Of a stretch of DNA of 64,000 bases, positions 10,266-54,539 are shown piece by piece. The notes below the pieces were generated by a model that was not told where the DNA came from, made no database searches, and saw only the letters and a list, made by a program, of their open reading frames with translations. The position numbers and the translations under genes are program-made. The stretch comes from a virus: IMG/VR virus record IMGVR_UViG_3300024262_003767; one strand, 5' to 3'. Numbering within the stretch: the first letter of the stretch is position 1; each line of letters starts with the position of its first letter.

Positions 10266-10275
10266 AATTAATAAA

Positions 10276-13771: not shown

Positions 13772-14487
13772 TCTTTATCCAACATAAATAAAGCCAAATC
13801 ATATTTTATTGGATCTTGGCTATCCATCTTTTTCAAATTATTAGTTAGTTCAATAACTGATTTCCAATCGTTTTGATTTCTGGTAAGTAATCCAAATTCT
13901 CTTGACATGTTTCCAACATGAACATCAAGAGGTATGTATAAATTGGACTTATCTATATTTTTCCATAATCCAAAATCTACATTATCATCTCTAACCATCC
14001 ATCTTAAAAACATATTTAATCTTTTTGCCGCTGAATTGTTTTCTACGTTGGAAAGGTGTTTTTCACTTCGTTGTTCATGTTCAAGAGAGAAAAAAATTTT
14101 CCAAAATCTAATTAAACTATTTTTTATATCATTCGTGAAAAATGTTTCCAATCCACTATAATTCAAATAAATATATCTTAGAGATTTCATATAATATATC
14201 ATATCAATATCCTTAATTGTTCTATGTTTAAATCCTTTAAGATTATTAAAATCTCCATATAAAATATAATTGTGAGGTTCATTATTCATTAATTCCATTA
14301 ATGAGTTTGACTTATTTATGATAATATCTCTCCTACCAAATGATATTATAGAAGTTAAAAATGCTGAGATTTCTATATCATAGAAACATTCAAATCTATG
14401 TGGAATTGATATTGGGTCATTTTCTATGAATAATTTATTATTATTAATTTTATAACTTTCTTCAAGTTGCTCTTTTATGTCTTTCAT
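13768..14487 (-). CDS. hypothetical protein
   Basis: 239-aa ORF, no confident motif. Confidence 0.5.
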   Translation of the reverse strand: MKDIKEQLEESYKINNNKLFIENDPISIPHRFECFYDIEISAFLTSIISFGRRDIIINKSNSLMELMNNEPHNYILYGDFNNLKGFKHRTIKDIDMIYYMKSLRYIYLNYSGLETFFTNDIKNSLIRFWKIFFSLEHEQRSEKHLSNVENNSAAKRLNMFLRWMVRDDNVDFGLWKNIDKSNLYIPLDVHVGNMSREFGLLTRNQNDWKSVIELTNNLKKMDSQDPIKYDLALFMLDKD

Positions 14488-28216: not shown

Positions 28217-29465
28217 TCATAAGATATTCATTTTTGAAACGCACAATCTCTCGTCTTTTCTTTTCTATTTCAATTTCAATTCCTTTGAAACCTTCAGCAG
28301 CTAAATCATTACCATTAACCACAAATCCATCATTACAATAATCAACAAATGGTTTATAGAATTCTTCACCCAAAAACTCATAAATTAAATCATCATCAAT
28401 ATGATATTGATTTTTCATTTTAGCCAAACCGTAAACATTTGAAACGTCAATGTTTTTAAATGATTTCCAATGTAAATCTAATTCCTTCTCAAGTTTGAGC
28501 AAAAATTCAATCTGGTTCACTAACTTGGAACTAAATTTCAATTCACTAATCATATATTTTCTCAATTTACGAATATCATTATCACGAAGTAAATGTGCAA
28601 ATAATATTGCGGAAATAGGTTTTGGTGTAAATCCATCGGGAGATATTTTCAATTTGGGAAACATTTGTTCCCACATATCATATTCAGTTAATAGTCTGAT
28701 ATAATTTTCTAATATTTTGTTTCCGCCTTTTTCTGCGTGTTCAATTACCTTATTCCATTCTTCATGTATTCTTTCTTGTGATACATCTTCTTTGGTACTT
28801 ATACCACGTAGTCTGTTATCACTTTTAATGGCTCTTGATGTCTCAGGTGATATGATACCACCTTTTCTACCTTGGGCTCTTGCAGCGAATCTAAATACTC
28901 TTAAAATTCTTAATCTATCTTCTTTAAATCTCTCAGCAGGATCACCAACAGCACGTATAACATTATTTTCAATATCTTTAACTCCACCAACCAAATCTAC
29001 AATTTCTTTTTTATTTATATCATAGAAAAGAGCATTGATAGTTAAATCTCTACGTTTAACATCATCTTCGATTGTAATATGGTTTCCAATTTCTACTTTA
29101 TCATCATCACCTTTTGTATCTCTACCTCCAGAAATATCTTTTCTAAAAGTTGCTAATTCGTGTCCGAGTGGTTCATCTTCAGTATAAATTCTAAGTACGC
29201 CAAAATTTTTACCTTGTTCATCAGAAACATTCCAACCTTTCAAAATTCTTTTACTTTCTTCTGGTAGAGCATTTGTGACTAAATCAAAATCATGTGGTAT
29301 CTTTTTTTGCAAAAAATCACGAACCGCTCCACCAACAACATAGATATCTTTACCAGCATTATTGAAGGCTCTTGATATTTCTTTAATGTCATAAGGAATA
29401 GGCATCTCAACAGAGATAGTATTTTCAGTTATAAATTCTAAATATTTTTTTAATTTTTCTACCAT
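28206..29465 (-). CDS. cca: tRNA nucleotidyltransferase (CCA-adding enzyme) / poly(A) polymerase family
   Basis: Head-domain motifs YVVGGAVRDFLQKKIPHDFDLVT and RRDLTINALFYD. Confidence 0.85.
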   Translation of the reverse strand: MVEKLKKYLEFITENTISVEMPIPYDIKEISRAFNNAGKDIYVVGGAVRDFLQKKIPHDFDLVTNALPEESKRILKGWNVSDEQGKNFGVLRIYTEDEPLGHELATFRKDISGGRDTKGDDDKVEIGNHITIEDDVKRRDLTINALFYDINKKEIVDLVGGVKDIENNVIRAVGDPAERFKEDRLRILRVFRFAARAQGRKGGIISPETSRAIKSDNRLRGISTKEDVSQERIHEEWNKVIEHAEKGGNKILENYIRLLTEYDMWEQMFPKLKISPDGFTPKPISAILFAHLLRDNDIRKLRKYMISELKFSSKLVNQIEFLLKLEKELDLHWKSFKNIDVSNVYGLAKMKNQYHIDDDLIYEFLGEEFYKPFVDYCNDGFVVNGNDLAAEGFKGIEIEIEKKRREIVRFKNEYLMNDN

Positions 29466-31366: not shown

Positions 31367-31774
31367 TTATTTTTTTTGAAACTTTTTTATACGCTTAATA
31401 GTTTCTTTAAGATCTTCTTCATAATATAATATTAAAAAGTCAACATCCCTCTCATTAATATTATATCTTTTCATTAAATCATCTATCTCTTCTTTTTTAA
31501 ATTTAGATTTGATTTTTGTGGTTTTATTTATTTTAGTTTGCCAATACCAACCAGGTATATTTGTTGTACTACCAAATATTGCGAACCAAATATCTAATGA
31601 TGATGGTTTATTTATATTTTTATTATTAAAAAATTGTGCTTTTTTTATATCCTTATAGGCGAATTTGCGATTGAGAATAAAAAAATTTCTTTCTTTATCA
31701 TCATCAGTAATAAACCTATATTTATCTTTATCTTTGAAGATGATGTTTCCTAAACTTATAAAATCAATTGCCAT
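31367..31774 (-). CDS. hypothetical protein
   Basis: 135-aa ORF. Confidence 0.5.
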   Translation of the reverse strand: MAIDFISLGNIIFKDKDKYRFITDDDKERNFFILNRKFAYKDIKKAQFFNNKNINKPSSLDIWFAIFGSTTNIPGWYWQTKINKTTKIKSKFKKEEIDDLMKRYNINERDVDFLILYYEEDLKETIKRIKKFQKK

Positions 31775-33954
31775 TAATAAAATTGTTTAAATATTTTTGA
31801 GATTTTTTCTTTTGTTATTGGTTTTACAATTTGAAAATCTATATTCTTCTCTACCATATCTGTGGTAGATATTGTAATTATAGTTAACTCTTCATCTATT
31901 TGTTTTAATTTTTCTATGAAATCTAGTATATTAATATTTGATAAACTCATATCTATAAATATTGCATCAATATCACCTAATTTTTCTTCAAGTACATCAA
32001 GTGTTTCCTTTGATGATAGTGTCCATTTAATTTTAACATTCATAGATTTTAACATTATACCTAATAATGAATAGTTTTCAGGTATATCTTCTAATACTAT
32101 CACTTTAATATTAGAAAAATCATACACAATTTTATTAACTTGTTTTGTTTGAATATTTTGAACTTCTTGTAATGGAAGAGTAAAAAAGAATGTGCTTCCT
32201 TCTTTTTGAGTTGAATCTACCCATATATTTCCACCAAGTATATTAACTATACTTTTTGCGATAGATAATCCCAATCCTGTACCTTGGTATTGTTTTTTTG
32301 ATGATGCATCAACTTGCATAAATTTATCAAAAACTATTTCTAATTTATCTTCTGGAATACCAATACCAGTATCTTCAACAAAGAATGTTATAATATTGTC
32401 TTTTATTCTTGTACCAATTCTTATATGTCCACTTTCAGTAAATTTAATTGCATTACTAATCAAATTATATAATACCTGTTTTAATCTAAGAAAATCAGAC
32501 ACTATTATTTCATTATCTTCTCGTTTTTCGAAAGTTAATTTTACCGAATCTATATTCTTTCTAATATTTATATCTATAAAAATTTCTTCTAATTCTTCAA
32601 ATAAATCATTGATTGGGAATCGTTCATATAATAGTTCTAAATTTAATTCACCTGCTTCAATTTTAGCATAATCTAATATGTTATTTAATAATTCTTCTAA
32701 ATGTTTTGCATTAGCATTTATAGTTTTAAGAAATTTTTTATTATTGGTAGTATCAAACTTATCATCTAATAATATATCTGAAAAGCCTATAATCGAATTC
32801 ATTGGCGTTCTTATTTCGTGACTCATATTTGCCAAAAATAGTGACTTTAAAAGATCACTTTTTTCTGCTTCTATTTTTGATTTTTCTAATTCTATTTTAA
32901 TATTTTCTTGTTCTGTAATATCTTTACAATGAATTGCAATATACTCCGTTGAGCCATTATCATTTAAAATGGGATATATGTAATTTTCAAAATATTTATT
33001 ATTTATAACATCAATAAAATGTACTGGTTTGCCTGTAAATATTGCTTCAAGTGTTCTTTTTCTTTTGGGTTCTACACTCTCTTTAGGTAAAATCTGTGAT
33101 ATGTTCACTCCTACTAATTCTTCTCTTGTTTTATTAAAATATTTACAACCTCTATCATTTATTGCTAATAACTCACCTACTTTATTTGTTAAATAAGATG
33201 CACTTAATGTTGAATTTATAATATCTAAGTGTTGTCTCTCCTTTATTTTCATATCAGTAATATCTTGAAATATGGTAACAAAACGATGTGAGTTTTGTTT
33301 ATATGCATCAATTAAAAACCATTTCTGAAAAATATATGAATATTTTTCAAAATGTAAAGTCTTATTATCAGTAAATATTTGAGAATATATCCTTATCCAT
33401 TCACTCGAATCTTTATCTAATATTTCAGTTATATTTTTTCCAATAATTTCTGAATCTAAACCTGTGGTTTCGGTGAACGCTTTATTTATTCTAACAAATT
33501 TATAATCAATAGGTTTGCCACTATTATCAAATATCATTTCATGTAGAGAAAATGCTCGACTCATATTATCAATAATCTTTTCAAGTTCTTCACTTTTAAA
33601 AATATAATCTTTACTTATTTGAGATAAATGTTTTTCATCTTGATATACAACATGTACAAAATTTTCCTCACCTCGATAGATATAATTATATCTCCAACGA
33701 TTAAATTTATCGTCTTTATACTCTTTTAATTCGTGTGTCATACATTCTCCACTATCATACACTTTTAATATTTTATCATAAATACCAAAGTCGATTACTT
33801 TAGAAAAAACATCAACCAATTTTTTATCAATAACATCATATTCAATTCTTTCTACCGTATAAAAATTTTCTGATACTTCGTGAAAATATATATCTTCATC
33901 GATAATTTTATATGTGATAGAAACAAAATCAAAAATTTTTTCAAAATTTTTCAT
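31774..33954 (-). CDS. soluble hybrid sensor histidine kinase (PAS-like repeats + HisKA + HATPase + receiver)
   Basis: H-box SHEIRTPMNSIIGFSDIL; N-box NLISNAIKFT; G1 DTGIGI; G2 GTGLGLSI; C-terminal REC-like VIVLED...IFIDMSL...ITIS..KP; no N-terminal TM segment. Confidence 0.85.
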   Translation of the reverse strand: MKNFEKIFDFVSITYKIIDEDIYFHEVSENFYTVERIEYDVIDKKLVDVFSKVIDFGIYDKILKVYDSGECMTHELKEYKDDKFNRWRYNYIYRGEENFVHVVYQDEKHLSQISKDYIFKSEELEKIIDNMSRAFSLHEMIFDNSGKPIDYKFVRINKAFTETTGLDSEIIGKNITEILDKDSSEWIRIYSQIFTDNKTLHFEKYSYIFQKWFLIDAYKQNSHRFVTIFQDITDMKIKERQHLDIINSTLSASYLTNKVGELLAINDRGCKYFNKTREELVGVNISQILPKESVEPKRKRTLEAIFTGKPVHFIDVINNKYFENYIYPILNDNGSTEYIAIHCKDITEQENIKIELEKSKIEAEKSDLLKSLFLANMSHEIRTPMNSIIGFSDILLDDKFDTTNNKKFLKTINANAKHLEELLNNILDYAKIEAGELNLELLYERFPINDLFEELEEIFIDINIRKNIDSVKLTFEKREDNEIIVSDFLRLKQVLYNLISNAIKFTESGHIRIGTRIKDNIITFFVEDTGIGIPEDKLEIVFDKFMQVDASSKKQYQGTGLGLSIAKSIVNILGGNIWVDSTQKEGSTFFFTLPLQEVQNIQTKQVNKIVYDFSNIKVIVLEDIPENYSLLGIMLKSMNVKIKWTLSSKETLDVLEEKLGDIDAIFIDMSLSNINILDFIEKLKQIDEELTIITISTTDMVEKNIDFQIVKPITKEKISKIFKQFY

Positions 33955-33955
33955 A

Positions 33956-34525
33956 TCATTTTAATTTTTTGAAACAAACTCTACATAAAGGTTTATAACT
34001 TTCATTACCACCAATTTCTATTTGTTCTCCTTCGGTAACTATAATATTATCTTTAAATCTACTATTTACAATGGCTTTTTTGTTTTTACATTCAGAACAT
34101 ATCGTTTTTATTTCTTCTATACTATCTGCCATCGTCATTAAATATTTTGAACCTTCAAATGGTTCCAATCTATAGTCTGATCTTAAACCATAACATATTA
34201 CAGGTATGTTTAATATATCGACAATATCTGACAATTGAAAAATGTGGTCTTTTGTTAAAAATTGTGATTCGTCCACTAAAATAGCCTTTATTTCATATGC
34301 CATTGGTTTAACATATTGGTATATATTTAATTTTTTATCTACAGGAATTGCAGGTTTACTTAAACCTACCCGAGACTTAACCACACCTTCTCCATACCTA
34401 GTATCTAAGGCTGATGTGAAGATTAAAATTTTTTCATTATTCTCTTCATAATTATATGAAACTTTCAGTAAATCAAGGCTTTTACCAGCACCCATGCTGG
34501 AATATCGGAAAAATAATTTTGCCAT
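33956..34525 (-). CDS. tdk: thymidine kinase (TK1 family)
   Basis: P-loop YSSMGAGKS; DESQF; C-terminal zinc ribbon CSEC...CRVC. Confidence 0.9.
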   Translation of the reverse strand: MAKLFFRYSSMGAGKSLDLLKVSYNYEENNEKILIFTSALDTRYGEGVVKSRVGLSKPAIPVDKKLNIYQYVKPMAYEIKAILVDESQFLTKDHIFQLSDIVDILNIPVICYGLRSDYRLEPFEGSKYLMTMADSIEEIKTICSECKNKKAIVNSRFKDNIIVTEGEQIEIGGNESYKPLCRVCFKKLK

Positions 34526-36869: not shown

Positions 36870-37331
36870 ATGATTACCATTTTTAAAATATATGAGACTT
36901 GGAATGATGATACCATAGATAAATCGTTATTTGTTAGTGGTCGTGCTAAACATAATCCTAAAGTAAAAAACGATATAATAGAGTATAAAACTGATAATGG
37001 TAAATATGTAGCAAAGATTAAAAAATTGTCAAATGGTAAGTTTATTTGCAAAGTATATAGAATAAGAGACGATGGTAGTAAAATTAGAATTAGAAAGAAA
37101 GTAAAAAAAACGTTACAAACCGCTCATAATTTTATTAGAGAATTTCTAAATGATAGACTTGAAGGTAAAAAAATTAAAAAATCTAAAAAGAAAGAAAACA
37201 AAAAACAAAAGGATGATGATCCTCTTGATAAATTATTTGTGGATATTGACGAACCTGGGTTTTCAGATTCAGATTTTGATTTTAGCGAACCTAAAAAACC
37301 AAGAAAAACTATAATTAGAAGGTTTACTTAA
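36870..37331 (+). CDS. basic Lys-rich protein (possible DNA-binding/histone-like)
   Basis: K-rich throughout (KKIKKSKKKENKKQK); acidic patch before a basic C-terminal tail. Confidence 0.5.
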   Translation: MITIFKIYETWNDDTIDKSLFVSGRAKHNPKVKNDIIEYKTDNGKYVAKIKKLSNGKFICKVYRIRDDGSKIRIRKKVKKTLQTAHNFIREFLNDRLEGKKIKKSKKKENKKQKDDDPLDKLFVDIDEPGFSDSDFDFSEPKKPRKTIIRRFT

Positions 37332-38334
37332 TCTTATTTTCTAAAATATTTTCAATATTTTTAAATTGAGTGTAGGCTATTCTCAACATTTTTATATCAT
37401 TTTCCTTACAATATTTATTTTTAATTTTATCATTTTGTTTCGTATATTTTAATCTTTCTTCACCTCCAAAATGTTCAACAGATTTATAATGTTGTATACC
37501 ATCATATTCCACACACATATTAAGTTCAGGTAAATAAAAATCAAAATGTAAAACTTGTTTATTTTTACATCCATTGAAAGTATATTGAGGTTCAAATTTA
37601 ATATTATTTTCTTTCAAATAATTTAATATTATTTCTTCTCCTTTAGATTGTTTACAACCTGGACAACCAACACCTCGCAAAATAGCGTTTGGTGTTATTT
37701 CCCATATATTATCACATTGATTACATTTTATTTTAACTTTATTATTTGCTTTAATATATTTACCTATAACTTCATATTTATCACCATGTACATTAAAAAC
37801 ATCTTTGATAAATTGTTCAGGTGTTTTTCTTTGTTTTTCACCCTTTTCTTTTGCTGAACATTCTGGACATTCACATTTTGTGTGTGATAAATGATACGGT
37901 TTAATTTTCCATATATTTTCACATATTTTACACCTAACCTTTACTTTTGTATTAGCATTAATATAATCTGATAAAAGTTCATACTTATCACCATAGTTAT
38001 TATTAAATTCTTCTTTAAATTTTTCTGGGGTTTTTCTTTGTTTTAAAACTGCACATTGTTTACAACCTCTACCCCTTAATAATGAATTACCGTTAGTTTT
38101 CCATTTATATCCACATTCATTACATCTAACTTCTATTTCTGATTTAGAATTTATGTAAGGTGATAATGTTGTAAATTTATCACCATAATTTTCCTTTAGT
38201 CTTTTTTGAAACCTTTCTTCTGAAAAACTTTTTGGTGCTAATTCGTGTGTTTCCCTATATTTTTCTTTTAGTTTTTTAAGTATTTTTTCTTTATTTTTTA
38301 GATAATATTGTTTATGCCATTCCTTATTATACAT
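37324..38334 (-). mobile_element. homing-endonuclease-like protein: three zinc-ribbon repeats + C-terminal DUF559/Vsr-like PD-(D/E)xK domain
   Basis: Three ~55-aa repeats each with CxxC...CxxC (CNECGYKW..GCKQCA; CKICENIW..CECPECS; CNQCDNIW..GCPGCK); C-terminal FDFYLPELNMCVEYDGIQHY. Confidence 0.55.
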
Positions 38335-39975: not shown

Positions 39976-41106
39976 TTATTCCTCTTTTTCTTTAACTAAG
40001 TTAAGATATATCTTTCTATCATCTTTGATAACAGAAATAACCTTAACTTTTACTTGATCACCTTTCGTTAATTTGGCATTATTCTTCACAAGGTATGTGG
40101 TTTGTATTAACCCCATAGTTTCATAGTCAAGTGAAATTAATGCTCCAAAATTTTTCACATCAATTACTTTTCCTGATAATATTTTACCTACTTTAATTTT
40201 ATCCCAAAGAGACTCTTTTAAAGATTGTGTTAGTATAATCTTTTGACTTTTTGTGATTTCCTTAACATAAAAATCAATTGCCATACCAGGTAGGATTTGG
40301 TGCCATCTATCTTGCCACTCAGTATTTATGTTCATTTTATGAATCATACCTGTAAGACAATTATTGAATTGAACAAATACTCCAAATGGTGTTGTTCCAG
40401 TAACTTCGCCTGCATAAACGACATCATTTTTTAGTTTTTTGATCTCTTCTGGTATAAGTGTCTTAAGATATTTTCTTCGTGAAACAACATAAACCCCCTT
40501 TTCTTGTTGCAATGTCTCTAACATCACATTTAGAGTTTCACCAATAATTGATTCAGGATTTGCGAGTTTATTAACATCAGCTAATGTATTTGGCATAAAC
40601 GCATCGATAGTTACATTATCCATATAAATATCAAGCATATAGCCTGCTGGTATTAATTCCTTCACCTTAGCAACAAGTGATAATCTTTCTTCATAATAAG
40701 TTTTCAATTTATTATGAACATTCATTTTAATTAATTCTGTAATAGATCCTCTTATTAAGAATGGATCGTCTTGAATTGATGTTATTAGTACATCAATTTG
40801 TGAACCAGGCTCTAACCCTATCACTAATTTTCCTTTTGGTGTGTCAACATAAATGTAGTCTTTATACCCAAAATCAACAGTTATTTCTGTATCATCTATA
40901 GATACTATCACACCTTTGATTATTTCCCCTTCTCTTACTTCTCTTAAATCAAGAAAAGTTTTTTCCATCATACGATAAAGATTTTGATAATCTTCAGTAA
41001 GATTAGATAAATCACCTTTTACTTTGATTATTTCTCTATCATTAGTTAGAAACGGAAAAGGATCAGGAAGTGATCCTACATTTACGCCTTCGATTAATTT
41101 CGACAT
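39976..41106 (-). CDS. S1 RNA-binding-domain repeat protein (ribosomal protein S1-like, ~4 S1 domains)
   Basis: Repeated S1 signatures: GEIIKGVIVSIDDTEITVDFG, GEVTGTTPFGVFVQFNNCLTGMIH, GKILSGKVIDVKNFGALISL. Confidence 0.7.
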   Translation of the reverse strand: MSKLIEGVNVGSLPDPFPFLTNDREIIKVKGDLSNLTEDYQNLYRMMEKTFLDLREVREGEIIKGVIVSIDDTEITVDFGYKDYIYVDTPKGKLVIGLEPGSQIDVLITSIQDDPFLIRGSITELIKMNVHNKLKTYYEERLSLVAKVKELIPAGYMLDIYMDNVTIDAFMPNTLADVNKLANPESIIGETLNVMLETLQQEKGVYVVSRRKYLKTLIPEEIKKLKNDVVYAGEVTGTTPFGVFVQFNNCLTGMIHKMNINTEWQDRWHQILPGMAIDFYVKEITKSQKIILTQSLKESLWDKIKVGKILSGKVIDVKNFGALISLDYETMGLIQTTYLVKNNAKLTKGDQVKVKVISVIKDDRKIYLNLVKEKEE

Positions 41107-44139: not shown

Positions 44140-44694
44140 ATGTCATTAACAACAACTGCGGTAAGTTCTAACTATGGCACATTAACCGTCTCAGGTACAC
44201 TTTCAGGTTACACAACAACATCATCGACAATAACAATATGTACAGGGTACACTTACGCAGGTTATGGGTATTCACCTTATCTAATGGGTGTTGATGTTGC
44301 TTATTCAAAATTATCAAATTTAGATTATGAAATAGAATTTTCATATGATGTTGACGATCATTTAAAAAATAGTGTAAGTTTTATAAATCATAAAAAAATC
44401 ACATTTAATTGTGATTTTGTGGAGAAAGATAGAATTCAACCTTATGAACTAATAATGAAAATGATAAGTGAAAAAATAAAATTCGATATCACAATTGATG
44501 TGAGTGATATTTTAACAGTTAAATATCTAGATGTTAGGTTTAAAGATATTGAAAATAATTTTTTATTTAATGGTAAGTGTGACTTTAGTACATTACAAGT
44601 TAAAATTAAATATAAGAGTATAATTTACGATAACCATAAATTACACATAACAGAAAAACGAAAAGATAAATTAAATAAAATAATGGAATTGTGA
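44140..44694 (+). CDS. hypothetical protein with S/T/G/Y-rich N-terminus
   Basis: 184-aa ORF. Confidence 0.5.
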   Translation: MSLTTTAVSSNYGTLTVSGTLSGYTTTSSTITICTGYTYAGYGYSPYLMGVDVAYSKLSNLDYEIEFSYDVDDHLKNSVSFINHKKITFNCDFVEKDRIQPYELIMKMISEKIKFDITIDVSDILTVKYLDVRFKDIENNFLFNGKCDFSTLQVKIKYKSIIYDNHKLHITEKRKDKLNKIMEL

Positions 44695-45284
44695 TAGATA
44701 GAAGAAATGATATATACAAAATTCTCAATTTAAAAAATTATAAACTTGGTATAGAAGTGGGTACTTTTGAAGGTGATTTTTCAAGAACTATTTTAAGTAC
44801 TTGGAATGGTACATTATATTCTTTAGATATTTGGAAAACATTAGATAATGAAGAATATGTTGATACTAGTAATAATATCACACCATTTGACACATTAGGT
44901 AAGACTATTATTAATATTGAAGGATTTGAAGATAGGAGTGTCTTAATAAGAACCTCATCAGAAAATGGTTCAAAAATATTTCCTAATGAATATTTTGATT
45001 TTGTTTATATTGATGCAAATCATAAATATTCTTATGTTAAACAAGATATAGAATTGTGGTATCCAAAAATAAAACATGGTGGTATGATATCAGGTCACGA
45101 TTATATTAACGATTATAAACCTGATCAAACGGTTAATGGATATGATACTAATGTATGGATAGATAATAATTTTTGTGGATTGTTTGGAGTAAATCCTGCG
45201 GTTGATGAATTTGTTAAAAAATATAATCTAGATTTAAATATAACAAGTGAATATTTTGGTACATGGTACACATTTAAAAAATAA
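44691..45284 (+). CDS. class I SAM-dependent methyltransferase-like protein (TylF/MycF-type, tentative)
   Basis: Motif-I-like LGIEVGTFEGDFS; acidic residue after beta2 (YSLDIW); GHDY. Confidence 0.4.
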   Translation: MIDRRNDIYKILNLKNYKLGIEVGTFEGDFSRTILSTWNGTLYSLDIWKTLDNEEYVDTSNNITPFDTLGKTIINIEGFEDRSVLIRTSSENGSKIFPNEYFDFVYIDANHKYSYVKQDIELWYPKIKHGGMISGHDYINDYKPDQTVNGYDTNVWIDNNFCGLFGVNPAVDEFVKKYNLDLNITSEYFGTWYTFKK

Positions 45285-45291
45285 TTAAATT

Positions 45292-45495
45292 ATGAAAACG
45301 TTAAAGAAAAACAATGAAATTAAAAGAGTAAAAGATTCTTCACCATCAGACGAGGCACAAATTCAAAGTTTATTAAACTCTGGATGGAAATATTGTCCGA
45401 AAAGTGAATGGAAAGCAACAAGACCTGTAAAGGAAAAAGTTGACAAGAAAAAAGTTGACAAGAAAGAGAATAAAAAAAGAGGTATAGATTCGTGA
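45292..45495 (+). CDS. small Lys-rich protein with tandem KKVDKK repeat
   Basis: 15-bp tandem repeat gaaaaagttgacaag x2 encoding KVDKKKVDKK. Confidence 0.4.
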   Translation: MKTLKKNNEIKRVKDSSPSDEAQIQSLLNSGWKYCPKSEWKATRPVKEKVDKKKVDKKENKKRGIDS

Positions 45496-46370
45496 GTTTA
45501 AAATTGAAAAAAATTGTAAAATCAACACATGATAATACAATTAAATACATTTATTACACCAACGACAATTTAATTATAGAATTTTCTTACATAGATAAAA
45601 ATGATGGTAAAAATATTATATGTGCACCATCACAAACAATGTGTAATATTGGTTGTAAATTTTGTCACACCACAGATCATATTGGAAAAATCAAAACTAG
45701 AAATTTAACGGAATATGAAATATCTGATGGTGTTGAATATATATATAATGATTTGAATTTATCAAAAAATCCAAAAACATTATTGATATCATATATGGGT
45801 TGTGGTGAACCAATTCTCAATGTAGATGGTGTAGTTAACTCTATGCGTATCATAAACGAGATGTATGATGTATATACAAGGTTTGCAATTGCAACATCAA
45901 TACCAGAATATAAATATATTGAATTTTTTAATTTTACTAATAAAATTGATGAATTAAAATTACCAGTAAAATTACACTTATCGTTACACTATACTATGGA
46001 TCAAATTAGATCGCAATGGATGCCAAAATCTATGAATATTATTGAATCTTTAGCTGCTGTTGATTTTTTCAAAAAGAAAACTAATAATTCAGTTGAAATA
46101 CATTACGCTTTACTTGATGGTGTTAATGATACTGAACAAGATGCAATACTTTTAACTAATTTAATAAAAGATAGAGACTTTAATGTAAAATTTTTATTTT
46201 ATAATAAAAGAGAGATATTGGATATTGAACCATCAGACAAACAAAAATTGAGAACATTTAAAAGATATTTCAATAAATATAATATTGAACATGAGTATTA
46301 TATACCACCAGGATTAGATGTTGGGGCATCATGTGGACAATTCTTAATGGAAGAATATACCGAAAAATAA
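45492..46370 (+). CDS. RlmN/Cfr-family radical SAM RNA methyltransferase, short form lacking the N-terminal domain
   Basis: IICAPSQTMCNIGCKFCHT (RlmN: vSsQvGCal.CkFCsT), MGCGEPILN (GMGEPLLN), C-terminal VGASCGQF (AACGQL). Confidence 0.75.
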   Translation: MSLKLKKIVKSTHDNTIKYIYYTNDNLIIEFSYIDKNDGKNIICAPSQTMCNIGCKFCHTTDHIGKIKTRNLTEYEISDGVEYIYNDLNLSKNPKTLLISYMGCGEPILNVDGVVNSMRIINEMYDVYTRFAIATSIPEYKYIEFFNFTNKIDELKLPVKLHLSLHYTMDQIRSQWMPKSMNIIESLAAVDFFKKKTNNSVEIHYALLDGVNDTEQDAILLTNLIKDRDFNVKFLFYNKREILDIEPSDKQKLRTFKRYFNKYNIEHEYYIPPGLDVGASCGQFLMEEYTEK

Positions 46371-46380
46371 AATAAACACA

Positions 46381-46914
46381 ATGAAAGTAATAGTAATTAA
46401 TGGTACAGCACAAACTGGAAAGGATAAGTTTGTCTCTTTTTTTAATGAAGTCGCAACCGAACTAAGAGTAAAGAATTATTCATCAATTGATAGAGTTAAA
46501 CAAATAGCCGAAATATGTTTTGGTTGGGACACTAAAAAGAATGATAAATCTAGAAGATTTTTATCAGAAATTAAAAGAATTTGGACTGATTTTAATGATG
46601 GTCCGTTTGAGGTTATTAAAAATCAAATAGATGTTGATATAATATATTCAAAAAATAATAATAAAGATGTAAGTAAAAATATCTATTTTATACATATACG
46701 AGAACCAGAAGAAATAAAAAAAGTTAAAAAATATTACGATATTTTCTGTGTTACACTTTTAATAAAAAAAGATGTAGATTTTATTCCTGATAATGATTCA
46801 GATAAAAATGTTGAAAATTTTGATTATGATTATATTGTAGATAATAATGGTTCAGAAGAAGAATTAAAAATACGAGCCGAAGAATTTCTAACACACATAA
46901 AAAAAACCTTGTAA
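46381..46914 (+). CDS. deoxynucleoside monophosphate kinase (T4 gp1-like)
   Basis: N-terminal MKVIVINGTAQTGKDKF parallels T4 gp1 MKLIFLSGVKRSGKDT (Walker A ending in GKD). Confidence 0.55.
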   Translation: MKVIVINGTAQTGKDKFVSFFNEVATELRVKNYSSIDRVKQIAEICFGWDTKKNDKSRRFLSEIKRIWTDFNDGPFEVIKNQIDVDIIYSKNNNKDVSKNIYFIHIREPEEIKKVKKYYDIFCVTLLIKKDVDFIPDNDSDKNVENFDYDYIVDNNGSEEELKIRAEEFLTHIKKTL

Positions 46915-46933
46915 GAAATTACAAGGTTTTTTT
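46901..46933. terminator. bidirectional terminator between the dNMP kinase gene and the convergent clpB
   Basis: A-run, ccttgtaagaaattacaagg, T-run; hairpin overlaps the stop codon. Confidence 0.65.
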
Positions 46934-46955: not shown

Positions 46956-49472
46956 TTAGGCTTCTAAAAGTGGAGTTTCATCTTTTGGTGGTAATTCTTT
47001 ACTATTCAAATTAACAATAGTAATCTCACCATCTTTACTTCTAAGTGAAACTTTATCACCAATTTTAATTTCACCATTGAGAATAGCATCTGTTAGAGTA
47101 TCTTCAATGTGTCGTTGAATTGCTCTTTTCAATGGTCTTGCACCATATTCAGCATCCCATCCTTCTTCAAATAAGAAGTCTTTAAGTGACTTTGTGATAT
47201 TTACAACATAACCAATATCTTTAAGTCTATCGAGAGTTGTTTTAATTTCAAGGTCAATAATTCTGAAAATGTTGTCTTTTGAAAGAGCGTTGAACATTAT
47301 AAGTTCATCAACTCTATTAAGAAATTCTGGTGCAAATTTCTTTTTCAATTCTTTATCAATAACAGCGTTCTTCTTATCTTGAATGTTTTTGTTGGTGGCA
47401 TTTGTTTGAAATCCCATACCTGTACCAAAATCTTTAAGTTGTCTTGAACCTGTATTCGATGTCATTATGATAATTGCGTTTTTAAAATTAACTCTTCTAC
47501 CATAACTATCAGTAAGAATTCCATCATCAAGAACTTGTAGAAGTATATTAAATACGTCTGGATGCGCTTTTTCCATTTCATCAAGAAGAACAATTGAATA
47601 TGGTTTTCTTCTGATGGCTTCAGTTAATTCACCACCATCATCATAACCAACATATCCTGGAGGCGCTCCAATCAATTTTGAAACTGAATGTTTTTCCATA
47701 TATTCAGACATATCAATTCTAATGAGGTTTTCTTCTGAACCAAAGAGTTCTTTTGCTAGAACCTTTGCTAAGTAAGTTTTACCGACACCTGTAGCACCTA
47801 AGAACATAAATGTTCCGACAGGTTTTTTAGGATCTTTGATACCAATTCTACTACGTTTGATTGAACGAACAATTTTATCAACAGCATCATCTTGTCCAAT
47901 AACAATATTTTTCATTTTAGTTCCAAGATTTCTCAATTTGTTTGATTCATCATCATCAACAGCATCAAGTGGGATTTTGGTCATCATTGAAACAACTTCA
48001 GCAATATCTTCTTTTCCAACGATTTCACGATTTTCGTCCAATTTTTCGTTCCATTCCTCTTTCAATTTTTTCAATTGTTCTGTAAGGTTTCTTTCTTTAT
48101 CTCTCCAAGAAGCAGCTTTTTCAAATTTCTGTTCGTCAACACATTCAGTTTTCTTTTTCTCGGCTTCTGAAATTTTACTTTCAAGAATAGAAATAGCTTT
48201 AGGTTGATTTGAATTTGAATCTACATGAACTTTGGCACCAGCTTCATCCAAAGCGTCAATTGCTTTATCTGGCATAAATCTATCATTCATATATTTATCA
48301 GTCAATTTTACACAAGCTTCAATTGCTTCATCTGTGTACACGACTTTGTGATAATCCTCATATCTAACTTTGAGTTGTTTAAGGATTTCAATAGTTTCTT
48401 CAATGGTAGTAGGTTCTACCACAACTTTTTGAAATCTTCTTTCTAATGCACCATCTTTTTCAATATGTTTTCTATATTCTTCGAGAGTAGTTGCACCAAT
48501 ACATTGGAATGTTCCTCTTGCTAATGCTGGTTTTAACATATTAGATGCATCAAGTGAACCTTGTGCGCTACCAGCACCAATAATTGTATGAATTTCATCA
48601 ATAAAAAGTATAATGTTTGATGTTTCTTCAATTTCTTTGATAATTCCTCTTAAACGAGATTCAAATTCGCCACGATATTTTGTTCCTGCAACAAGGGCAC
48701 CCATATTAAGGGTGAAAATTCTTTTATCTTTAATGTTGTTTGGCACTTTACCATCAACAATTCGTTGTGCTAAACCTTCAACAATTGCAGATTTGCCAAC
48801 TCCAGGCTCACCTATAAGAATAGGATTATTTTTCTTTCTACGTGAAAGAATTTGACTTATTCTTTTAATCTCAATTTTTCTACCAACAACTGGATCGAGA
48901 GAACCTTCTTTTGCTTTTTTGGTAATATCTTCACCAAATTGTTCAATAAGTTTAGGTTTCTTATTTTTATTTGATGCTGTTGTATCACTATGATGCATTT
49001 CTGGATCATCCCAATCTGCACTATTACTTATTCCAGTAACTTTTTCGTGTAATTTTTTAATTATCTCACCTTCATCAATTTTTGAAAACATATCATTTAA
49101 AATATTATTTTTAGTATTTAAGAGTGAAAGTAATACTACATCAGTATCAACATATTTGACATCCATTTCATCAATTATTCCAACACAATTTTCAAGTATG
49201 TCCGTAACTTCTTGTGATAATTGTACTTTATCTTTTCTCTCTGCCAATTGAATATGCTCCATTTGGTTTCTCATTACCAAAGCATCTTGAATAGTTTTTT
49301 TGATTGTTGGAATACGAATATCAATTTCTTGAAGAACTTGATAAGCACGATAATTTTCATCCTCAATTAGAGCCAAAAACAAGTGTTCTGGTTCAATTTC
49401 AGATGATTTATATTGCAACGCAATCGTCTTACTATTCTTAATCACATTATCTACGTCTTTGTTAAAGTTCAT
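46956..49472 (-). CDS. clpB: ClpB/ClpC-family AAA+ chaperone (two nucleotide-binding domains)
   Basis: N-terminal Clp-N repeats; NBD1 GEPGVGKS + LFIDEIH; NBD2 [10 protein letters not shown] + [14 protein letters not shown]; sensor GARPLKR. Confidence 0.9.
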
Positions 49473-49777: not shown

Positions 49778-50080
49778 TTAATCTTTCTCAATCGTGAGTG
49801 TTAATCCTTGTTCTTCAAGTGCGGATTTAAAAGGTTTTAATTTATCTTTTGAACCAGTTTTTAAGATACTCGCACCTTTCATATGAACTGTCCAAGCTGT
49901 GTTTTCAGCTTTTTCTGGACTAAAACTCATAATTGATATCAGACATAAAATTACATGATCAAAAGAATTGACTTCATCATTCCATAAAATCAATTTATAG
50001 ACTTTATCATCCGATGGTTCAATACCCGCTTTACTGAGTATTTCTTCTAATGTTTTTGTTATTTCTTTTGTGTCGCTCAT
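49778..50080 (-). CDS. clpS: ATP-dependent Clp protease adaptor ClpS
   Basis: YKLILWNDEVNSFDHVI...AENTAWTVHMKGAS, typical ClpS core. Confidence 0.85.
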   Translation of the reverse strand: MSDTKEITKTLEEILSKAGIEPSDDKVYKLILWNDEVNSFDHVILCLISIMSFSPEKAENTAWTVHMKGASILKTGSKDKLKPFKSALEEQGLTLTIEKD

Positions 50081-51375
50081 ATTCCTAATTCCTCTTTATA
50101 TAGTTTAACAGTATTAAAGTTTCCAGTATATTTTCCTTCACTATCAGACAACTTTACACAATCTCTCCAAACTTTCATTCCTTCAGGTAAGGCTTCAGAC
50201 ATCTTAATTACCATATTTAAAGGTTTTGCCTTTTTTAAAGTTTCCATAAAATAACCACCATTTGGATTTGGTATCGATTCCCAATTAAATTGGTTATGAT
50301 AATCTTCATCATAGATACCATTTTGTGAAACCAAAACAACATCGTTTGATAGCCAAGTACCTATACCATAGGAAGATAATATTTTATTTCTCACACAATT
50401 TTCAATTGTTTTAATTTTTTCTATACTATTTATAGAGTCAGAAAATACAATTGTTTTTGGAATCATACCATTAGGCATTTTAATACCTTTATTTATGTAA
50501 TGTTTGATAGTTTTTTCTGCGAATTCAACAGGTTCACCAGAATCTTGACGAACACCGTCAAATAATTTTGAATAAAATAAATCAAAACCTTCAAAGAAAA
50601 TATCTGTTGTATATGTATCAGAAAGTGCAATTCCTAATGCTCCTTTATAAGCATCTACCCAACGACCCATTCCTACACGATTAGCCATCATCACACCGTA
50701 TTTAGCAGCGTGAAACATAAACCATTCGTGTGCCTGAGTTCCAATTGCTTTAATACCATATTTACGAGCAAACATCACATTGGATGTACCAACGATTGTT
50801 TTTGGTGCAACTTTCAAAAATTCTTCAATAACTCTACCTTGGATAAATTTTGAAAATCTTCTGCGGGTTCCAAATTCAGATAATGAAATTCCAAGTTCAG
50901 ATAATTGTTTAAATTTTTCATCCCAAATTTCCATTGACTTTTCTAAGTCAACTTCTTCACCTGAGAAAAGGAAGAATAATTCTGATATTAAAGCCATTAA
51001 TTGAACTTCCCAAAATATAGTTTTGTGCCAAAAACCTTCAATTTCTATTTCTAATACACCATTTTTTTGAGTAACTTTAACTTCATTAGGATCATATTGA
51101 TAACTCCTAAGATACATATAATAGGAAATATCAAAGAATGGAAGTTTACTTTTCAAATGTTCTTCAATTTCTTTGGTAAATTTTAAATTTTTGAAATGAG
51201 CAATCTGTTCTTTTAACTCGGTAGCAAAACCTTTTGGAAATTTACGGGTTTTATCTCTGAGTATGAACTTATACTTAACCTTAGCGTTAGGATAGTGTTT
51301 TAGTATGGCAAATTGCATGAAATACTTATAGGCGTCCTGATCATCAAATTCGGTAATTATTGGTTTAAATCTCAT
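50077..51375 (-). CDS. pncB: nicotinate phosphoribosyltransferase
   Basis: Collinear with E. coli PncB: DAYKYFMQ, FWEVQLMALISE, FGTRRRFS, GTSN, GTQAHEW. Confidence 0.9.
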   Translation of the reverse strand: MRFKPIITEFDDQDAYKYFMQFAILKHYPNAKVKYKFILRDKTRKFPKGFATELKEQIAHFKNLKFTKEIEEHLKSKLPFFDISYYMYLRSYQYDPNEVKVTQKNGVLEIEIEGFWHKTIFWEVQLMALISELFFLFSGEEVDLEKSMEIWDEKFKQLSELGISLSEFGTRRRFSKFIQGRVIEEFLKVAPKTIVGTSNVMFARKYGIKAIGTQAHEWFMFHAAKYGVMMANRVGMGRWVDAYKGALGIALSDTYTTDIFFEGFDLFYSKLFDGVRQDSGEPVEFAEKTIKHYINKGIKMPNGMIPKTIVFSDSINSIEKIKTIENCVRNKILSSYGIGTWLSNDVVLVSQNGIYDEDYHNQFNWESIPNPNGGYFMETLKKAKPLNMVIKMSEALPEGMKVWRDCVKLSDSEGKYTGNFNTVKLYKEELGI

Positions 51376-51376
51376 A

Positions 51377-52078
51377 TTATAAAAATTTTCCTATTGTTTC
51401 TGATTCAATTTCAATATCTTTTACTGAATTAATAACAAGTATATTATAATCGATTACTAACATTTCAATATATTTATCTAATTCTTCTTCTGTTCCTAAC
51501 CCTTTTGTTGCGGCAAGATTTAAGATAACTTGAAATCCAGCATTGGACAAATCCTTTAAAGTTTCACCTACACAGTAATTAAGTGCTAATCCACCAACAA
51601 TAATTGTTGTTATATTGTGATAATTATAAAATTCAATCAACCCAGTCGAAATTTTACCTTCTTGATCGTGATAAACACTTGTGTAAGGGTGTAGGTGTGG
51701 ATCGACTCCCTTATTTACAATAAAGTTAAAATCTTCAATTTTACCAAGTTCATCAAGAATTTCCGAACCAAATGTTCCTGATTCACAATGCAAATTCCAA
51801 AACATATCAACATTTTTGTGTCCAACTATAGGTGTGAATTGAGGATTTTCTTCAGTTGCTACCCATAACGCATTTTTTGAGTGCATATCTCTTGATATGG
51901 TTTTAACAATTCCTATTAAATTTTGTTTTGCTAATTCTTTACCAATTAGGTGTCCATCAGGTACAGGTAGTTCATTAGGACAGAGTGGAGTAAATCCCTT
52001 TTGAGGGTCAACGTTGTGACTTGCTGTTCTTTCGCTAATCACTCTAATCTTATTCGTATTTTCAAAACTTATATTCAT
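51377..52078 (-). CDS. pncA: nicotinamidase/pyrazinamidase (isochorismatase family)
   Basis: DPQKGF, K, and catalytic Cys in IIVGGLALNYCVGETL. Confidence 0.85.
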   Translation of the reverse strand: MNISFENTNKIRVISERTASHNVDPQKGFTPLCPNELPVPDGHLIGKELAKQNLIGIVKTISRDMHSKNALWVATEENPQFTPIVGHKNVDMFWNLHCESGTFGSEILDELGKIEDFNFIVNKGVDPHLHPYTSVYHDQEGKISTGLIEFYNYHNITTIIVGGLALNYCVGETLKDLSNAGFQVILNLAATKGLGTEEELDKYIEMLVIDYNILVINSVKDIEIESETIGKFL

Positions 52079-52164: not shown

Positions 52165-52569
52165 TTATTCGTGAATTCTTTTAAAGTTTTCAATATATTT
52201 AGACATATTTACGGAGCCTATAATATTTTGAGTGTGAATTATACATATTGGTAATTTTTCATTATTATCAATACAGTAATCACACAACCATTTGACACAC
52301 TCCATACCTGTTTTTTCGGTGTATTTTGAGTAATCAACATCATCTTGATTTAATAAATATTGATAATGTTCATCTGCTAAATCGTGATCAAAACTAATCA
52401 TTTGAGGTAAACCATTTAACTCAATACATTTAATAAATTGATCGTAAGACCTAACAATAACCCAATCGAGATTTATATAGTCCATATTTTGTGTATAGTA
52501 ATATGCGTCCTCATAATTTCCATGAGGGGAATATGGAACTCTTTCATCATCTAAAAACAAATTGTACAT
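52165..52569 (-). CDS. hypothetical protein
   Basis: 134-aa ORF; LFLDDER...SFDHDL motif of unknown family. Confidence 0.5.
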   Translation of the reverse strand: MYNLFLDDERVPYSPHGNYEDAYYYTQNMDYINLDWVIVRSYDQFIKCIELNGLPQMISFDHDLADEHYQYLLNQDDVDYSKYTEKTGMECVKWLCDYCIDNNEKLPICIIHTQNIIGSVNMSKYIENFKRIHE

Positions 52570-53033: not shown

Positions 53034-54539
53034 TTACTTCTTATCAGGTTTTTCAGTTTTTTTGGTTTTTGCTTTTTCTTCAAGCAATTTAACCATATCT
53101 GCATTACCTTCTAAGAATCCAGGCATATTCTGACCAACCATTTTAAAAGCGTCATCCATTGGAGGAACAGATTTTAAAAGGTTTGTCAACCAATTAGAAG
53201 TAGATGATCCAGCACCTTCACCACCATTACCAGTATCCCAAACTGTGATGTTATCAAATTTAATTTCTTTGATAGCTTCAACTTGAGTTCTAATAATTTC
53301 TGGAAGTTTGTCTGCAATCATCATTTGGACAGCCTTATCAGGATCACCACCCGCTGCACTTACATAAGCGGCAAAACCTTCGGCTTGTTTTGTCATTTGT
53401 TCAAACGTACCACGAGCCTGAGCATCCATCATAAAGAATACTCCATCAGCCTTACCTTTTTCAACTCTACGAATTCTTTCAGCTTCAGCCTCAGCATCTA
53501 CTTCAATTTTTTCTTTTTGAATCTGTGCAGGTACAACAATATCAGCGAATTTTTGAGAACGTTCTCTTTCTGCTCTCGCATCTTCAGCGATTTTCTCAGC
53601 TTTGTATGACTCTTCAAGAGCGTTTGCTGATTTTGTTTTTTGAGCAACGACAATTTTACGATCAGCCTCAGCTTCGGCTTCTCTCCTACCAGCAATAGAA
53701 TTTGCGATTTCAATAGCCGCTTTATTTTCACCATCAACAGCAGTTGAGTTAAAGGCTGCAGTATCAATTCTCATATTCTTATCTGCTTCTTTTTCACCAA
53801 TAACGGCTCTTGAATTAGCAGATGCGACTTTAATTCTTTGCTCTCTTTGAGCCTCAGCGACACCAATATCCCCATCTCTATCTTTCTCAGCAACTGATTT
53901 CTTTGCTTCGTTAATAGCCTGAGCCGCAGCTTCTTTACCAAGAGCCTCAATATAACCAGATTCATCATCAATATCTTTAATATTAACGTTGATAAGTTTC
54001 AAACCAACTTTCTTAAGTTCGTTTTCAACATTATCTTGAATCTTACTCAAGAAAGCGTCACGGTTAGCGTTGATTTCTTCAATAGTAAGAGTTGCGATAA
54101 TCGCCCTCATTTGACCAAAAATAATATCCTGAGCCAACGCTACGATTTGTGTATCTTGAAATCCCAACATTCTTTCAGCGGCATTAATTTTGAATTCATC
54201 TTCTGATGAAATCGCAACGGTGTACGTTGAAGGAACATTTACACGAATATTCTGATTCGAAAGTGCAGATTTCAAATCAACTTCAAAAGACATAGGTTTC
54301 AGAGATAAGAACTTGTATTCCTGAATGATAGGCCAAACAAATACACCACCTCCGTGATATACTCTGGCGCTGGCGTGTCCTGACCGTCCTTGTGAGTCGG
54401 CTTTTCCCTTCACACGCCCATATACAACTAAAAGTTGATCAGAAGGGCACCTTTTATATCTTGCTTTAAAAGTAAAGAAGAATGCGAAAAAGGCAATCGC
54501 TGCTAATCCAATGATAATAGCAATCGAAAATGATACCAT
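53034..54539 (-). CDS. flotillin-like SPFH/band-7 protein (YqiK/FloA-like)
   Basis: N-terminal TM; SPFH core; long Ala/Glu/Lys-rich coiled region (EAEAEADRKIVVAQ...AEAEAERIRRVE). Confidence 0.85.
   Translation of the reverse strand: MVSFSIAIIIGLAAIAFFAFFFTFKARYKRCPSDQLLVVYGRVKGKADSQGRSGHASARVYHGGGVFVWPIIQEYKFLSLKPMSFEVDLKSALSNQNIRVNVPSTYTVAISSEDEFKINAAERMLGFQDTQIVALAQDIIFGQMRAIIATLTIEEINANRDAFLSKIQDNVENELKKVGLKLINVNIKDIDDESGYIEALGKEAAAQAINEAKKSVAEKDRDGDIGVAEAQREQRIKVASANSRAVIGEKEADKNMRIDTAAFNSTAVDGENKAAIEIANSIAGRREAEAEADRKIVVAQKTKSANALEESYKAEKIAEDARAERERSQKFADIVVPAQIQKEKIEVDAEAEAERIRRVEKGKADGVFFMMDAQARGTFEQMTKQAEGFAAYVSAAGGDPDKAVQMMIADKLPEIIRTQVEAIKEIKFDNITVWDTGNGGEGAGSSTSNWLTNLLKSVPPMDDAFKMVGQNMPGFLEGNADMVKLLEEKAKTKKTEKPDKK

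Follow-up and report, generated by a model that had tools for sequence, protein, structure and literature searches.

A phage-borne RlmN/Cfr homologue with a complete class-A catalytic apparatus and a predicted new substrate pocket

Class-A radical S-adenosylmethionine (SAM) methylases carry, besides the radical-SAM cluster, two cysteines outside the cluster, one for methyl transfer and one for resolution of the covalent adduct. RlmN of Escherichia coli (PDB 3RF9, 3RFA and 5HR7) has dual specificity and methylates C2 of A2503 in 23S rRNA and of A37 in tRNA. Cfr of Staphylococcus aureus (PDB 9P0P) methylates C8 of the same rRNA nucleotide. Here we describe a homologue of both enzymes encoded on a 64,000-nucleotide stretch of viral DNA (IMG/VR record IMGVR_UViG_3300024262_003767), the whole of which is referred to as the window. 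The radical-SAM gene encodes a protein of 292 residues, and the strand opposite to it is full of stop codons. Our analysis indicates with good confidence that the protein represents a neofunctionalised branch of the class-A radical-SAM C-methylases that is neither RlmN nor Cfr.

The initial annotation had described a phage-borne RlmN/Cfr-like open reading frame (ORF), and this description holds. The frame is exactly as given, and the motifs quoted for it are all present: IICAPSQTMCNIGCKFCHT at residues 42–60, GCGEPILN at residues 103–110 and ASCGQF at residues 279–284. The nearest profiles are those of RlmN and Cfr, not of an unrelated radical-SAM family. The RlmN model TIGR00048 matches with E=2.1e-40 over profile positions 74–346 of 355, yet the score of 138.8 bits lies below the curated cut-off of 290. 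The second RlmN model, NF008396, gives 90.6 against a cut-off of 633. The Cfr models NF000424, NF011024 and TIGR04432 match with E=1e-25 to 6e-27, and their scores (94.8 against 530, 89.7 against 468 and 87.6 against 550, respectively) are likewise all below the cut-offs. The Pfam Radical_SAM score is slightly under the gathering threshold. PHROG 27142, a family of ~300 residues annotated as 'Fe-S-cluster redox domain-containing', aligns over nearly its whole length (E=1e-21, residues 11–285 against profile positions 11–299 of 300). On sequence grounds the protein is placed in neither the RlmN nor the Cfr family.

The catalytic residues are retained. Alignment to the E. coli RlmN structure 3rf9 (E=4e-19) matches C44 with C118, C51, C55 and C58 with C125, C129 and C132, and C281 with C355, so that the second catalytic cysteine pair is present in addition to the cluster. 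The protein thus has the radical-SAM cluster motif and the two non-cluster cysteines that define class A. C281 is invariant in all 72 + 26 aligned clade members, C44 is conserved in at least 90% of the aligned relatives, and the cluster triad and the GxGEP motif are invariant in the family (30 close and 72 diverse members). An AlphaFold model built from 30 relatives reaches a predicted local distance difference test value of 92.1 and a predicted template-modelling (TM) score of 0.89. Its top Foldseek matches are 6fz6, 5hr7 and 3rfa (E=6e-20 to 1e-16, TM 0.77–0.83), the best of them all RlmN/Cfr, and the next fold class, pyruvate formate-lyase activase, is weaker by at least 8 orders of magnitude in E-value. 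The alignments and the model show an intact, conserved, phage-borne RlmN/Cfr homologue with a predicted complete class-A catalytic apparatus.

The protein shares with RlmN the core fold (TM ~0.8), the CxxxCxxC and GxGEP motifs, the β-extension with the resolving cysteine and the C-terminal CGQ motif. It differs from RlmN in its low identity (~25–28%), in the absence of residues 1 to ~76 and in the replacement of the nucleotide-site Arg and Asn and of the basic helix contacts. With Cfr it has in common the fold, five conserved cysteines and, by prediction, the class-A mechanism. Unlike Cfr, it lacks the N-terminal domain (NTD), keeps 1 of 7 Cfr-specific residues and scores far under the family cut-offs.

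The missing region corresponds to the HhH2 accessory domain, which binds the RNA elbow. Residue 12 of the protein aligns with RlmN 88, residue 4 with Cfr 65 and residue 9 with position 74 of TIGR00048. The loss of an N-terminal domain, as originally proposed, is therefore real, although the missing part measures about 60–76 residues by alignment rather than the ~90 first estimated. Upstream of the relatives, the frame stays open for only 5–30 codons, compared with 58–99 in RlmN/Cfr controls. A Cfr variant shortened at its N terminus is reported to give no resistance in vivo (PMC8752094).

Major changes are also found on the substrate side. The residues that contact rRNA in the 2026 cryo-EM complex of Cfr (PMC13001441) were mapped by means of an alignment comprising 17 canonical RlmN/Cfr proteins together with 72 diverse short forms, 26 forms from Bacilli and 6 proteins of cultured phages. 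The nucleotide-site arginine (Cfr R327, 17/17 canonical proteins) is a tyrosine in the clade of short forms, Y270 in the window protein, and the nucleotide-site asparagine (Cfr N288, 16/17) is a lysine, K233. Further exchanges in the clade are N208 to K (K160), T210/A to H (H162), Y252/T to E (E202), S151/N to L (L98) and Q329-F330 to P-P (P272-P273). The helix contacts of the radical-SAM domain are affected as well. R184 (16/17 canonical) is replaced by V, I or T (T129 in the window protein), R249 (K or R in 17/17) by N or D (N199), and K250 by P in the clade (S200 in the window protein). With these exchanges, the protein has lost three of four conserved basic contacts to the RNA helix, while R130, the equivalent of Cfr R185, remains a basic position among phage members of the clade. 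The shared core has a median net charge of +5 among canonical proteins and of -2.5 in the short clade, with values of -3 for the window protein and -5 for its relative in phage Tunturi_5. Seven residues have been described as Cfr-specific: Y97, W101, S103, S151, S153, Q329 and F330 (PMC12887959). Their equivalents here are K36, K40, I42, L98, S100, P272 and P273, of which only the S153 equivalent matches.

Taken together, eleven positions (C44, L98, S100, K160, H162, E202, K233, Y270, P272, P273 and C281) form a signature that reads CLSKHEKYPPC in the window protein. Of ~141 short-form loci, belonging to phages, the candidate phyla radiation (CPR), gut Bacilli and one Woesearchaeote, 126 have the exact signature, whereas all 17 canonical proteins deviate from it at 8–9 of the 11 positions. 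The window protein fits this clade in full: it has the entire signature, a length within ~285–345 residues and no NTD. A neighbour-joining tree places canonical and signature proteins in separate groups; its internal branches are short, and it was used for this grouping only. The conserved exchanges show that the clade, which is large, NTD-less and spans domains of life, has a predicted substrate-binding side rebuilt as a conserved pocket of its own.

These results bear on the function first suggested for the gene, namely that of an RlmN or Cfr enzyme acting on A2503 or A37. The sub-threshold scores, the R327 to Y270 and N288 to K233 exchanges and the loss of three of four helix contacts argue against it. 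A Cfr phenotype had also been considered. With 88–95 bits against cut-offs of 468–550, and with six of seven Cfr-specific residues absent, there is no basis for predicting resistance against the PhLOPSA drugs (phenicols, lincosamides, oxazolidinones, pleuromutilins, streptogramin A). Since the whole catalytic apparatus is kept, we infer that the protein would follow the RlmN ping-pong reaction and methylate an sp2 carbon of a nucleobase. Given the loss of the NTD, of the Arg/Asn pair and of the basic contacts, together with an acidic core, its substrate is probably not canonically bound 23S rRNA A2503 or tRNA A37. In the proposed reaction, SAM would methylate Cys281, and the 5'-deoxyadenosyl radical would abstract a hydrogen atom from the Cys281 methyl group. 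The resulting thiomethylene radical would add to the sp2 carbon of the nucleobase, and Cys44 would resolve the covalent adduct.

The family is large. At E<=1e-10, at least 499 relatives were found in a large protein database; the best 120 are 57–100% identical and ~295 residues long, and many lie on contigs of 100–614 kb. Searching 1.84 billion representatives exhaustively returned 4820 matches, with 104 clusters at E<=1e-30. Among the top ~110 clusters, nearly all are short forms whose alignment begins with their first residues, and full-length RlmN/Cfr proteins appear only from E~6e-29. In IMG/VR we identified 50 distinct loci on contigs of up to 676 kb. The short form is also cellular. Reference genomes contain it in metagenome-assembled genomes (MAGs) of the CPR (Patescibacteria; 43–47% identity) and in two DPANN archaea, and it occurs in ~65 gut 'Bacilli/Tenericutes/Erysipelotrichaceae' species (26–32% identity). 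The Bacilli contexts and some of the CPR contexts are plainly cellular, as in locus L050 with IF-2, RbfA, RNase R, SmpB and CdaA, and the nearest neighbours in such contexts include MreB, alanine racemase and aminoacyl-tRNA synthetases. Four relatives of 505 residues (P0056, P0066, P0073 and P0117; 61–63% identical to the window protein) have a conserved C-terminal extension of ~209 residues, for which neither a Pfam match nor a homologue in the loci compared was found.

The only member of the clade found in a cultured phage is gp170 of Tunturiibacter phage Tunturi_5, annotated as 'Fe-S-cluster redox domain-containing protein' (PHROG 27142). It is 38% identical to the window protein, lacks the NTD and has the signature CLSKHEKYSPC. 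It differs from the window protein in its length of 332 residues, its genome of 59% GC and its position among small hypothetical genes, and it is uncharacterised. The literature that we searched gave nothing relevant on phage RlmN and no description of the signature clade or of the reaction proposed here.

Other phages carry NTD-less RlmN-like proteins of different types. The Phabio/D6/Psa21 and ANB28/Vibrio 249E41-1/Aeromonas Ahp1 types resemble the window protein in length (~296–320 residues), in the absence of the NTD and in the presence of the radical-SAM triad and the C-terminal cysteine. Their signatures differ: Phabio/D6 proteins read YHNEYKNIRVC, without the first cysteine, and the ANB28 type reads CQMGQ[FY]SFP[AS]C. 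Phage tRNA arrays (and RtcB) have these two types, and not the clade of the window, inside or next to them, and we therefore rejected the association with tRNA clusters as a clue for the signature clade. In Phabio (L044, 2474–3364) and D6 (L045, 2411–3304), Tyr takes the place of the resolving cysteine, RlmN C118; by likeness to RlmN C118A, the reaction would be expected to be changed or stalled. Both genes adjoin phage tRNA genes, and that of D6 is also near RtcB. Locus L146 (genes at 5286–6233 and 10001–10846) encodes an ANB28-type protein 4 kb from a signature-clade protein, the former 65% identical to a protein of Stenotrophomonas phage ANB28 located inside a tRNA array. Since L146 keeps both genes, their functions are likely non-redundant. 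L142, L144 and L147 likewise carry a pair of distinct NTD-less RlmN-like paralogues separated by a few kb. In L014, tRNA-Met and a transfer-messenger RNA with the tag peptide GKNTIKSLGNKVIAMISPRVVAFAA (13560–14116) lie 2.7 kb downstream of the signature gene. One DPANN protein carries a variant of the domain (CLSKHKKFSEC) fused to Kae1/TsaD, the tRNA t6A37 enzyme. This fusion was set aside as a clue to a tRNA substrate, as no other protein among the 120 best matches in 5.8 billion has it and the signature is a variant.

Fusions to deoxynucleotide enzymes, with partners verified by Pfam, recur in the clade. A dCMP deaminase domain precedes the radical-SAM domain in P0188 (locus L049) and follows it in numerous Bacilli of the gut, an arrangement seen in 9 GTDB genomes and in 8 clusters among the best 120 of the database. 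In L111, a single ORF of 677 residues combines the radical-SAM domain with both dCMP deaminase and dUTPase. P0241 carries a C-terminal nucleoside-2-deoxyribosyltransferase-like domain (PF05014), attached through the same conserved linker as in the Bacilli fusions. We considered whether the fused deaminase could be the tRNA enzyme TadA and rejected this, as the match to ComEB (dCMP deaminase; E=1e-33 and 1e-17) is far stronger than that to TadA (5e-8 and 1e-3).

Unfused genes keep similar company. In viral loci, a separate dCMP deaminase on the same strand lies directly upstream (L019, L035) or at 0.8 kb (L148) and 1.8 kb (L012). It is found upstream at a distance of no more than ~2 kb in 4/5 independent viral occurrences within 20-kb spans, a placement with a chance probability, roughly estimated, of the order of 1e-3 or lower. 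A dUTPase gene directly follows the radical-SAM gene in L014–16/38 and follows the fusion in L089, ThyA is encoded 0.8 kb downstream in L029/L141, and thymidylate kinase nearby in L019, L021 and L087. Of the Bacilli loci (L065–L131; for example L123, 8960–9868), 36/67 have a co-directional LysR regulator gene (PF00126 and PF03466) immediately upstream, an arrangement that is typical of metabolic genes and unusual for an RNA-modification housekeeping gene. The RNA-modification role first assigned to the protein thus loses ground, since the clade keeps company with enzymes of deoxynucleotides and not with RNA genes. As the likeliest class of substrate we tentatively propose a free (deoxy)nucleotide from the dCMP/dUMP/dTMP branch, at somewhat less than even chances.

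A functional analogy, and no more than that, exists with ThyA, ThyX and the pairing of gp42 (dCMP hydroxymethylase) with gp1 (deoxynucleoside monophosphate (dNMP) kinase) in phage T4. Common to these systems and to the clade is the company of dCMP deaminase, dUTPase, dNMP/dTMP kinase and PF05014 partners. Unlike the window protein, ThyA and ThyX are folate-based and are not radical-SAM enzymes, and there is no relationship in sequence or fold.

Within the window, five co-directional genes form a block that ends at a terminator (Table 1); the radical-SAM gene is the fourth of them, and the dNMP kinase belongs to the same terminator-bounded unit. The position between a methyltransferase-like ORF and the kinase was correctly reported before; a lysine-rich ORF of 67 residues lies additionally between the methyltransferase and the radical-SAM gene. 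The GTG start codon of the radical-SAM gene overlaps the stop codon of this small ORF (GTGA), which suggests that the two may be translationally coupled. The 67-residue product has no family match, and its gene is absent beside the radical-SAM gene in all other loci compared. For both reasons we rejected it as a substitute for the missing domain. The best PHROG match of the neighbouring methyltransferase carries the annotation 'DNA methyltransferase'. A comparison of conserved partners, covering 37 and later ~150 loci, found by all-versus-all BLAST that none of the window neighbours (methyltransferase, 67-residue ORF, 184-residue ORF, dNMP kinase) recurs at other loci. A promoter scan gave a result no better than shuffled sequence.

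The window has a GC content of 26%, and a near-identity DNA search returned no close relative among deposited phages. It looks like a genome of the huge-phage type, and it also encodes several HNH homing endonucleases, SbcCD, a peptide deformylase, an antiterminator and a virion structural protein. Together, the thymidine kinase and the dNMP kinase show that this AT-rich phage invests in dTMP supply; ThyA, ThyX, dUTPase and dCMP deaminase were not found in the 64 kb. The genes of the RNA-end-processing or repair type, which encode the RNA 2'-phosphotransferase, the tRNA nucleotidyltransferase, the 'cyclic-phosphate processing receiver' domain protein and the S1-domain protein, could form a phage toolkit for tRNA repair. 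Relatives of the DUF723-type ORF lie beside the radical-SAM gene in 8–9 other loci (including L002, 6893–7369, and L008, L022, L027, L028 and L034). This ORF is probably a mobile, homing-endonuclease-like element and not a functional partner.

Table 1 Features of the radical-SAM locus and of the rest of the window.
Feature	Position	Strand	Remarks
Class-A radical-SAM methylase homologue	45492..46370	+	292 residues, NTD-less, signature CLSKHEKYPPC; from profiles, structure alignment and signature reading
Shine-Dalgarno sequence AAGAGG	45477..45482	+	9 nt 5' of the GTG start of the radical-SAM gene
C44 codon through C51-x3-C55-x2-C58	45621..45665	+	C44 = RlmN C118, resolving Cys; 4Fe-4S motif
GCGEP, residues 103–107	45798..45812	+	SAM-binding GxGEP motif, shared with RlmN (MGMGEP)
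C281 codon	46332..46334	+	= RlmN C355, Cfr C338, methyl-carrying Cys, in ASCGQF
67-residue lysine-rich ORF	45292..45495	+	5' neighbour of the radical-SAM gene
Methyltransf_24 class-I SAM methyltransferase	44691..45284	+	PF13578, E=8e-16; in co-directional block
184-residue ORF	44140..44694	+	no assigned function; opens co-directional block
dNMP kinase, T4 gp1-like	46381..46914	+	phrog_139, E=1.5e-11; 10 bp 3' of the radical-SAM gene; closes block
Strong bidirectional intrinsic terminator	46900..46933	both	15-bp stem; ends the + strand unit 44140–46914 and the convergent ClpB-like gene
Thymidine kinase	33956-34525	-	phrog_592, E=5e-66; 44% identity with Tdk of E. coli
RNA 2'-phosphotransferase, Tpt1/KptA-like	8676-9188	-	E=2e-57
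CCA-adding/PolyA_pol-type tRNA nucleotidyltransferase	28206-29465	-	
'Cyclic-phosphate processing receiver' domain protein	52165-52569	-	
S1-domain protein	39976-41106	-	
Hybrid sensor histidine kinase	31774-33954	-	726 residues; PAS, HisKA, HATPase_c, C-terminal receiver
NAD-salvage pair	50077-52078	-	nicotinate phosphoribosyltransferase (PF04095/PF17767), then isochorismatase-family (nicotinamidase-like) protein
ClpB/ClpC-like AAA+ chaperone	46956-49472	-	838 residues; phrog_4871, E=3e-260; convergent with the radical-SAM operon
SPFH/Band-7 protein	53034-54539	-	501 residues
Zinc-finger/CapR/PvuRts1I-like (DUF723-type) ORF	37324-38334	-	

If the substrate is a free nucleotide, the methylated product could be passed to the adjacent dNMP kinase. 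Several observations weigh against this proposal. To our knowledge, no class-A radical-SAM methylase acts on anything but an RNA adenine, as RlmN and Cfr do. The tRNA and RNA-repair genes of the window (CCA-adding enzyme, RNA 2'-phosphotransferase) fit a role on RNA. The 100 nearest neighbours from viral and CPR loci were also scanned with Pfam in an unbiased manner, and no family occurred more than twice. The scan found dCMP deaminase twice and dUTPase and ribonucleotide reductase once each, next to two aminoacyl-tRNA synthetases and IF-3; translation genes are as frequent as nucleotide genes. As the scan shows no strong enrichment, adjacency by itself says little, and it is mainly the fusions that carry the case. 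Canonical rlmN of E. coli itself lies immediately downstream of ndk (L153, 1839–3574), and we know of no functional link between the two. Tunturi_5 encodes dUTPase, dCMP deaminase and ThyX (gp50; PF02511, E=1e-30) 75 kb from gp170, and the Bacilli MAG L114 carries ThyX 9.5 kb from its radical-SAM gene. As ThyX or, in L029/L141, ThyA coexists with the radical-SAM gene, a simple thymidylate-synthase role would be redundant. A replacement thymidylate synthase as the sole role was rejected for this reason, given coexistence in three lineages. The preference for a base is not deducible from sequence, since Cfr recognises adenine mostly through backbone atoms (PMC13001441). In the dCMP deaminase of Tunturi_5, gp49 (L150, 45435–46397; 320 residues), the deaminase domain is followed by a carbohydrate-binding module (CBM_5_12, E=6e-10), and the ThyX encoded beside it is unusually long, with 518 residues and two Thy1 stretches.

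The protein could instead be an RNA adenine C2/C8 methyltransferase, with a target like tRNA A37 or rRNA A2503, that binds RNA without the NTD. It might recognise only a stem-loop or a single strand, or it might depend on a partner protein such as the basic 67-residue product, although that ORF is not conserved beside the gene. Such an enzyme would serve phage or host translation or shield tRNA from anticodon nucleases. Every characterised relative is an RNA adenine methylase. Conservation extends to the catalytic core, to the CGQ motif and to the β-extension (C-x-[SP]-[ST]-Q-x-x-C), and in the phage clade R130 is still basic. The residues that would hold the RNA are nonetheless gone: the NTD, R184, R249, K250, R327 and N288 are lost and the core is acidic. 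Genomic context is divided on this point. The window encodes an S1-domain protein besides the two tRNA and RNA-repair enzymes, tRNA genes lie 2–9 kb from some relatives (L013, L014, L031, L032–34), and L050 adjoins SmpB, RNase R and IF-2; yet the window has no tRNA genes, and the association with tRNA arrays is confined to the Phabio/D6 and ANB28 types, the latter present in L146 besides the signature gene. The DPANN fusion to Kae1/TsaD points to tRNA as well, but is a singleton with a variant signature. We regard a role on RNA as rather unlikely. Methylation of a base in polymeric DNA after replication (purine C2/C8 or uracil/cytosine C5) would create a new DNA mark or an anti-restriction modification in phage or cellular DNA. 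The pocket is non-canonical, the unit contains a second SAM methyltransferase with a 'DNA methyltransferase' annotation, and the clade is common in huge phages. Huge phages often modify their DNA. The acidic core, however, offers no obvious nucleic-acid-binding surface, the methyltransferase neighbour is found only in the window, and in gut Bacilli, where we know of no such DNA mark, members of the clade are chromosomal and widely distributed. A substrate in DNA is accordingly very improbable in our estimation.

In its sharpest form, the nucleotide hypothesis proposes a radical-SAM thymidylate synthase that is independent of folate, converting dUMP to dTMP, or dCMP to 5-methyl-dCMP with subsequent deamination, by a route that runs alongside ThyA or ThyX. 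The recurrent fusion partners dCMP deaminase and dUTPase both make dUMP, and in L111 they share one polypeptide with the radical-SAM domain. Tmk, ThyA and dNMP kinase neighbours are the setting expected for a thymidylate synthase. The carriers are very AT-rich (most loci have 22–32% GC, with the window inside this range) and are reduced-genome organisms or huge phages, and the thymidine kinase of the window fits an investment in dTMP supply. Against these points stand the coexistence with ThyX and ThyA in three independent lineages, the unfused state of most clade members and the literature searched, in which we found nothing relevant on such chemistry, on a radical-SAM thymidylate synthase, on thymidylate synthesis independent of folate or on a fusion of a radical-SAM domain with dCMP deaminase. 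In this specific form the hypothesis is improbable, if less so than a DNA substrate. A decaying, functionless remnant of a captured host rlmN would explain why the protein is shorter than RlmN and scores under the family cut-offs. This explanation is effectively refuted by conservation and has almost no probability left: hundreds of full-length relatives with 57–81% identity keep all catalytic residues, 104 clusters are found at E<=1e-30, the signature is kept across domains of life, and the gene has a good start site and a confident structure model.

The broader reading, that of a sister branch of RlmN and Cfr with the same chemistry and a rebuilt substrate site, would carry class-A methylation to a new substrate; members of this branch occur, among other carriers, in common Bacilli of the human gut. 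The label '23S rRNA (adenine2503-C2)-methyltransferase', found in some Joint Genome Institute names and GenBank phage records, should not be transferred to the clade, and neither should that of a Cfr-like resistance gene. The presence of a member in a cultured phage, Tunturi_5 gp170, makes the question of function testable. That substrate could be a nucleotide, in which case a new thymidylate route or a new DNA base might be involved. If the thymidylate reading, which we hold to be improbable, is true, the clade would be a third functional branch of the class-A radical-SAM methylases, acting on a free pyrimidine deoxynucleotide, and would provide huge phages, CPR and DPANN organisms and gut Bacilli with a SAM-driven, folate-independent route to thymidylate.

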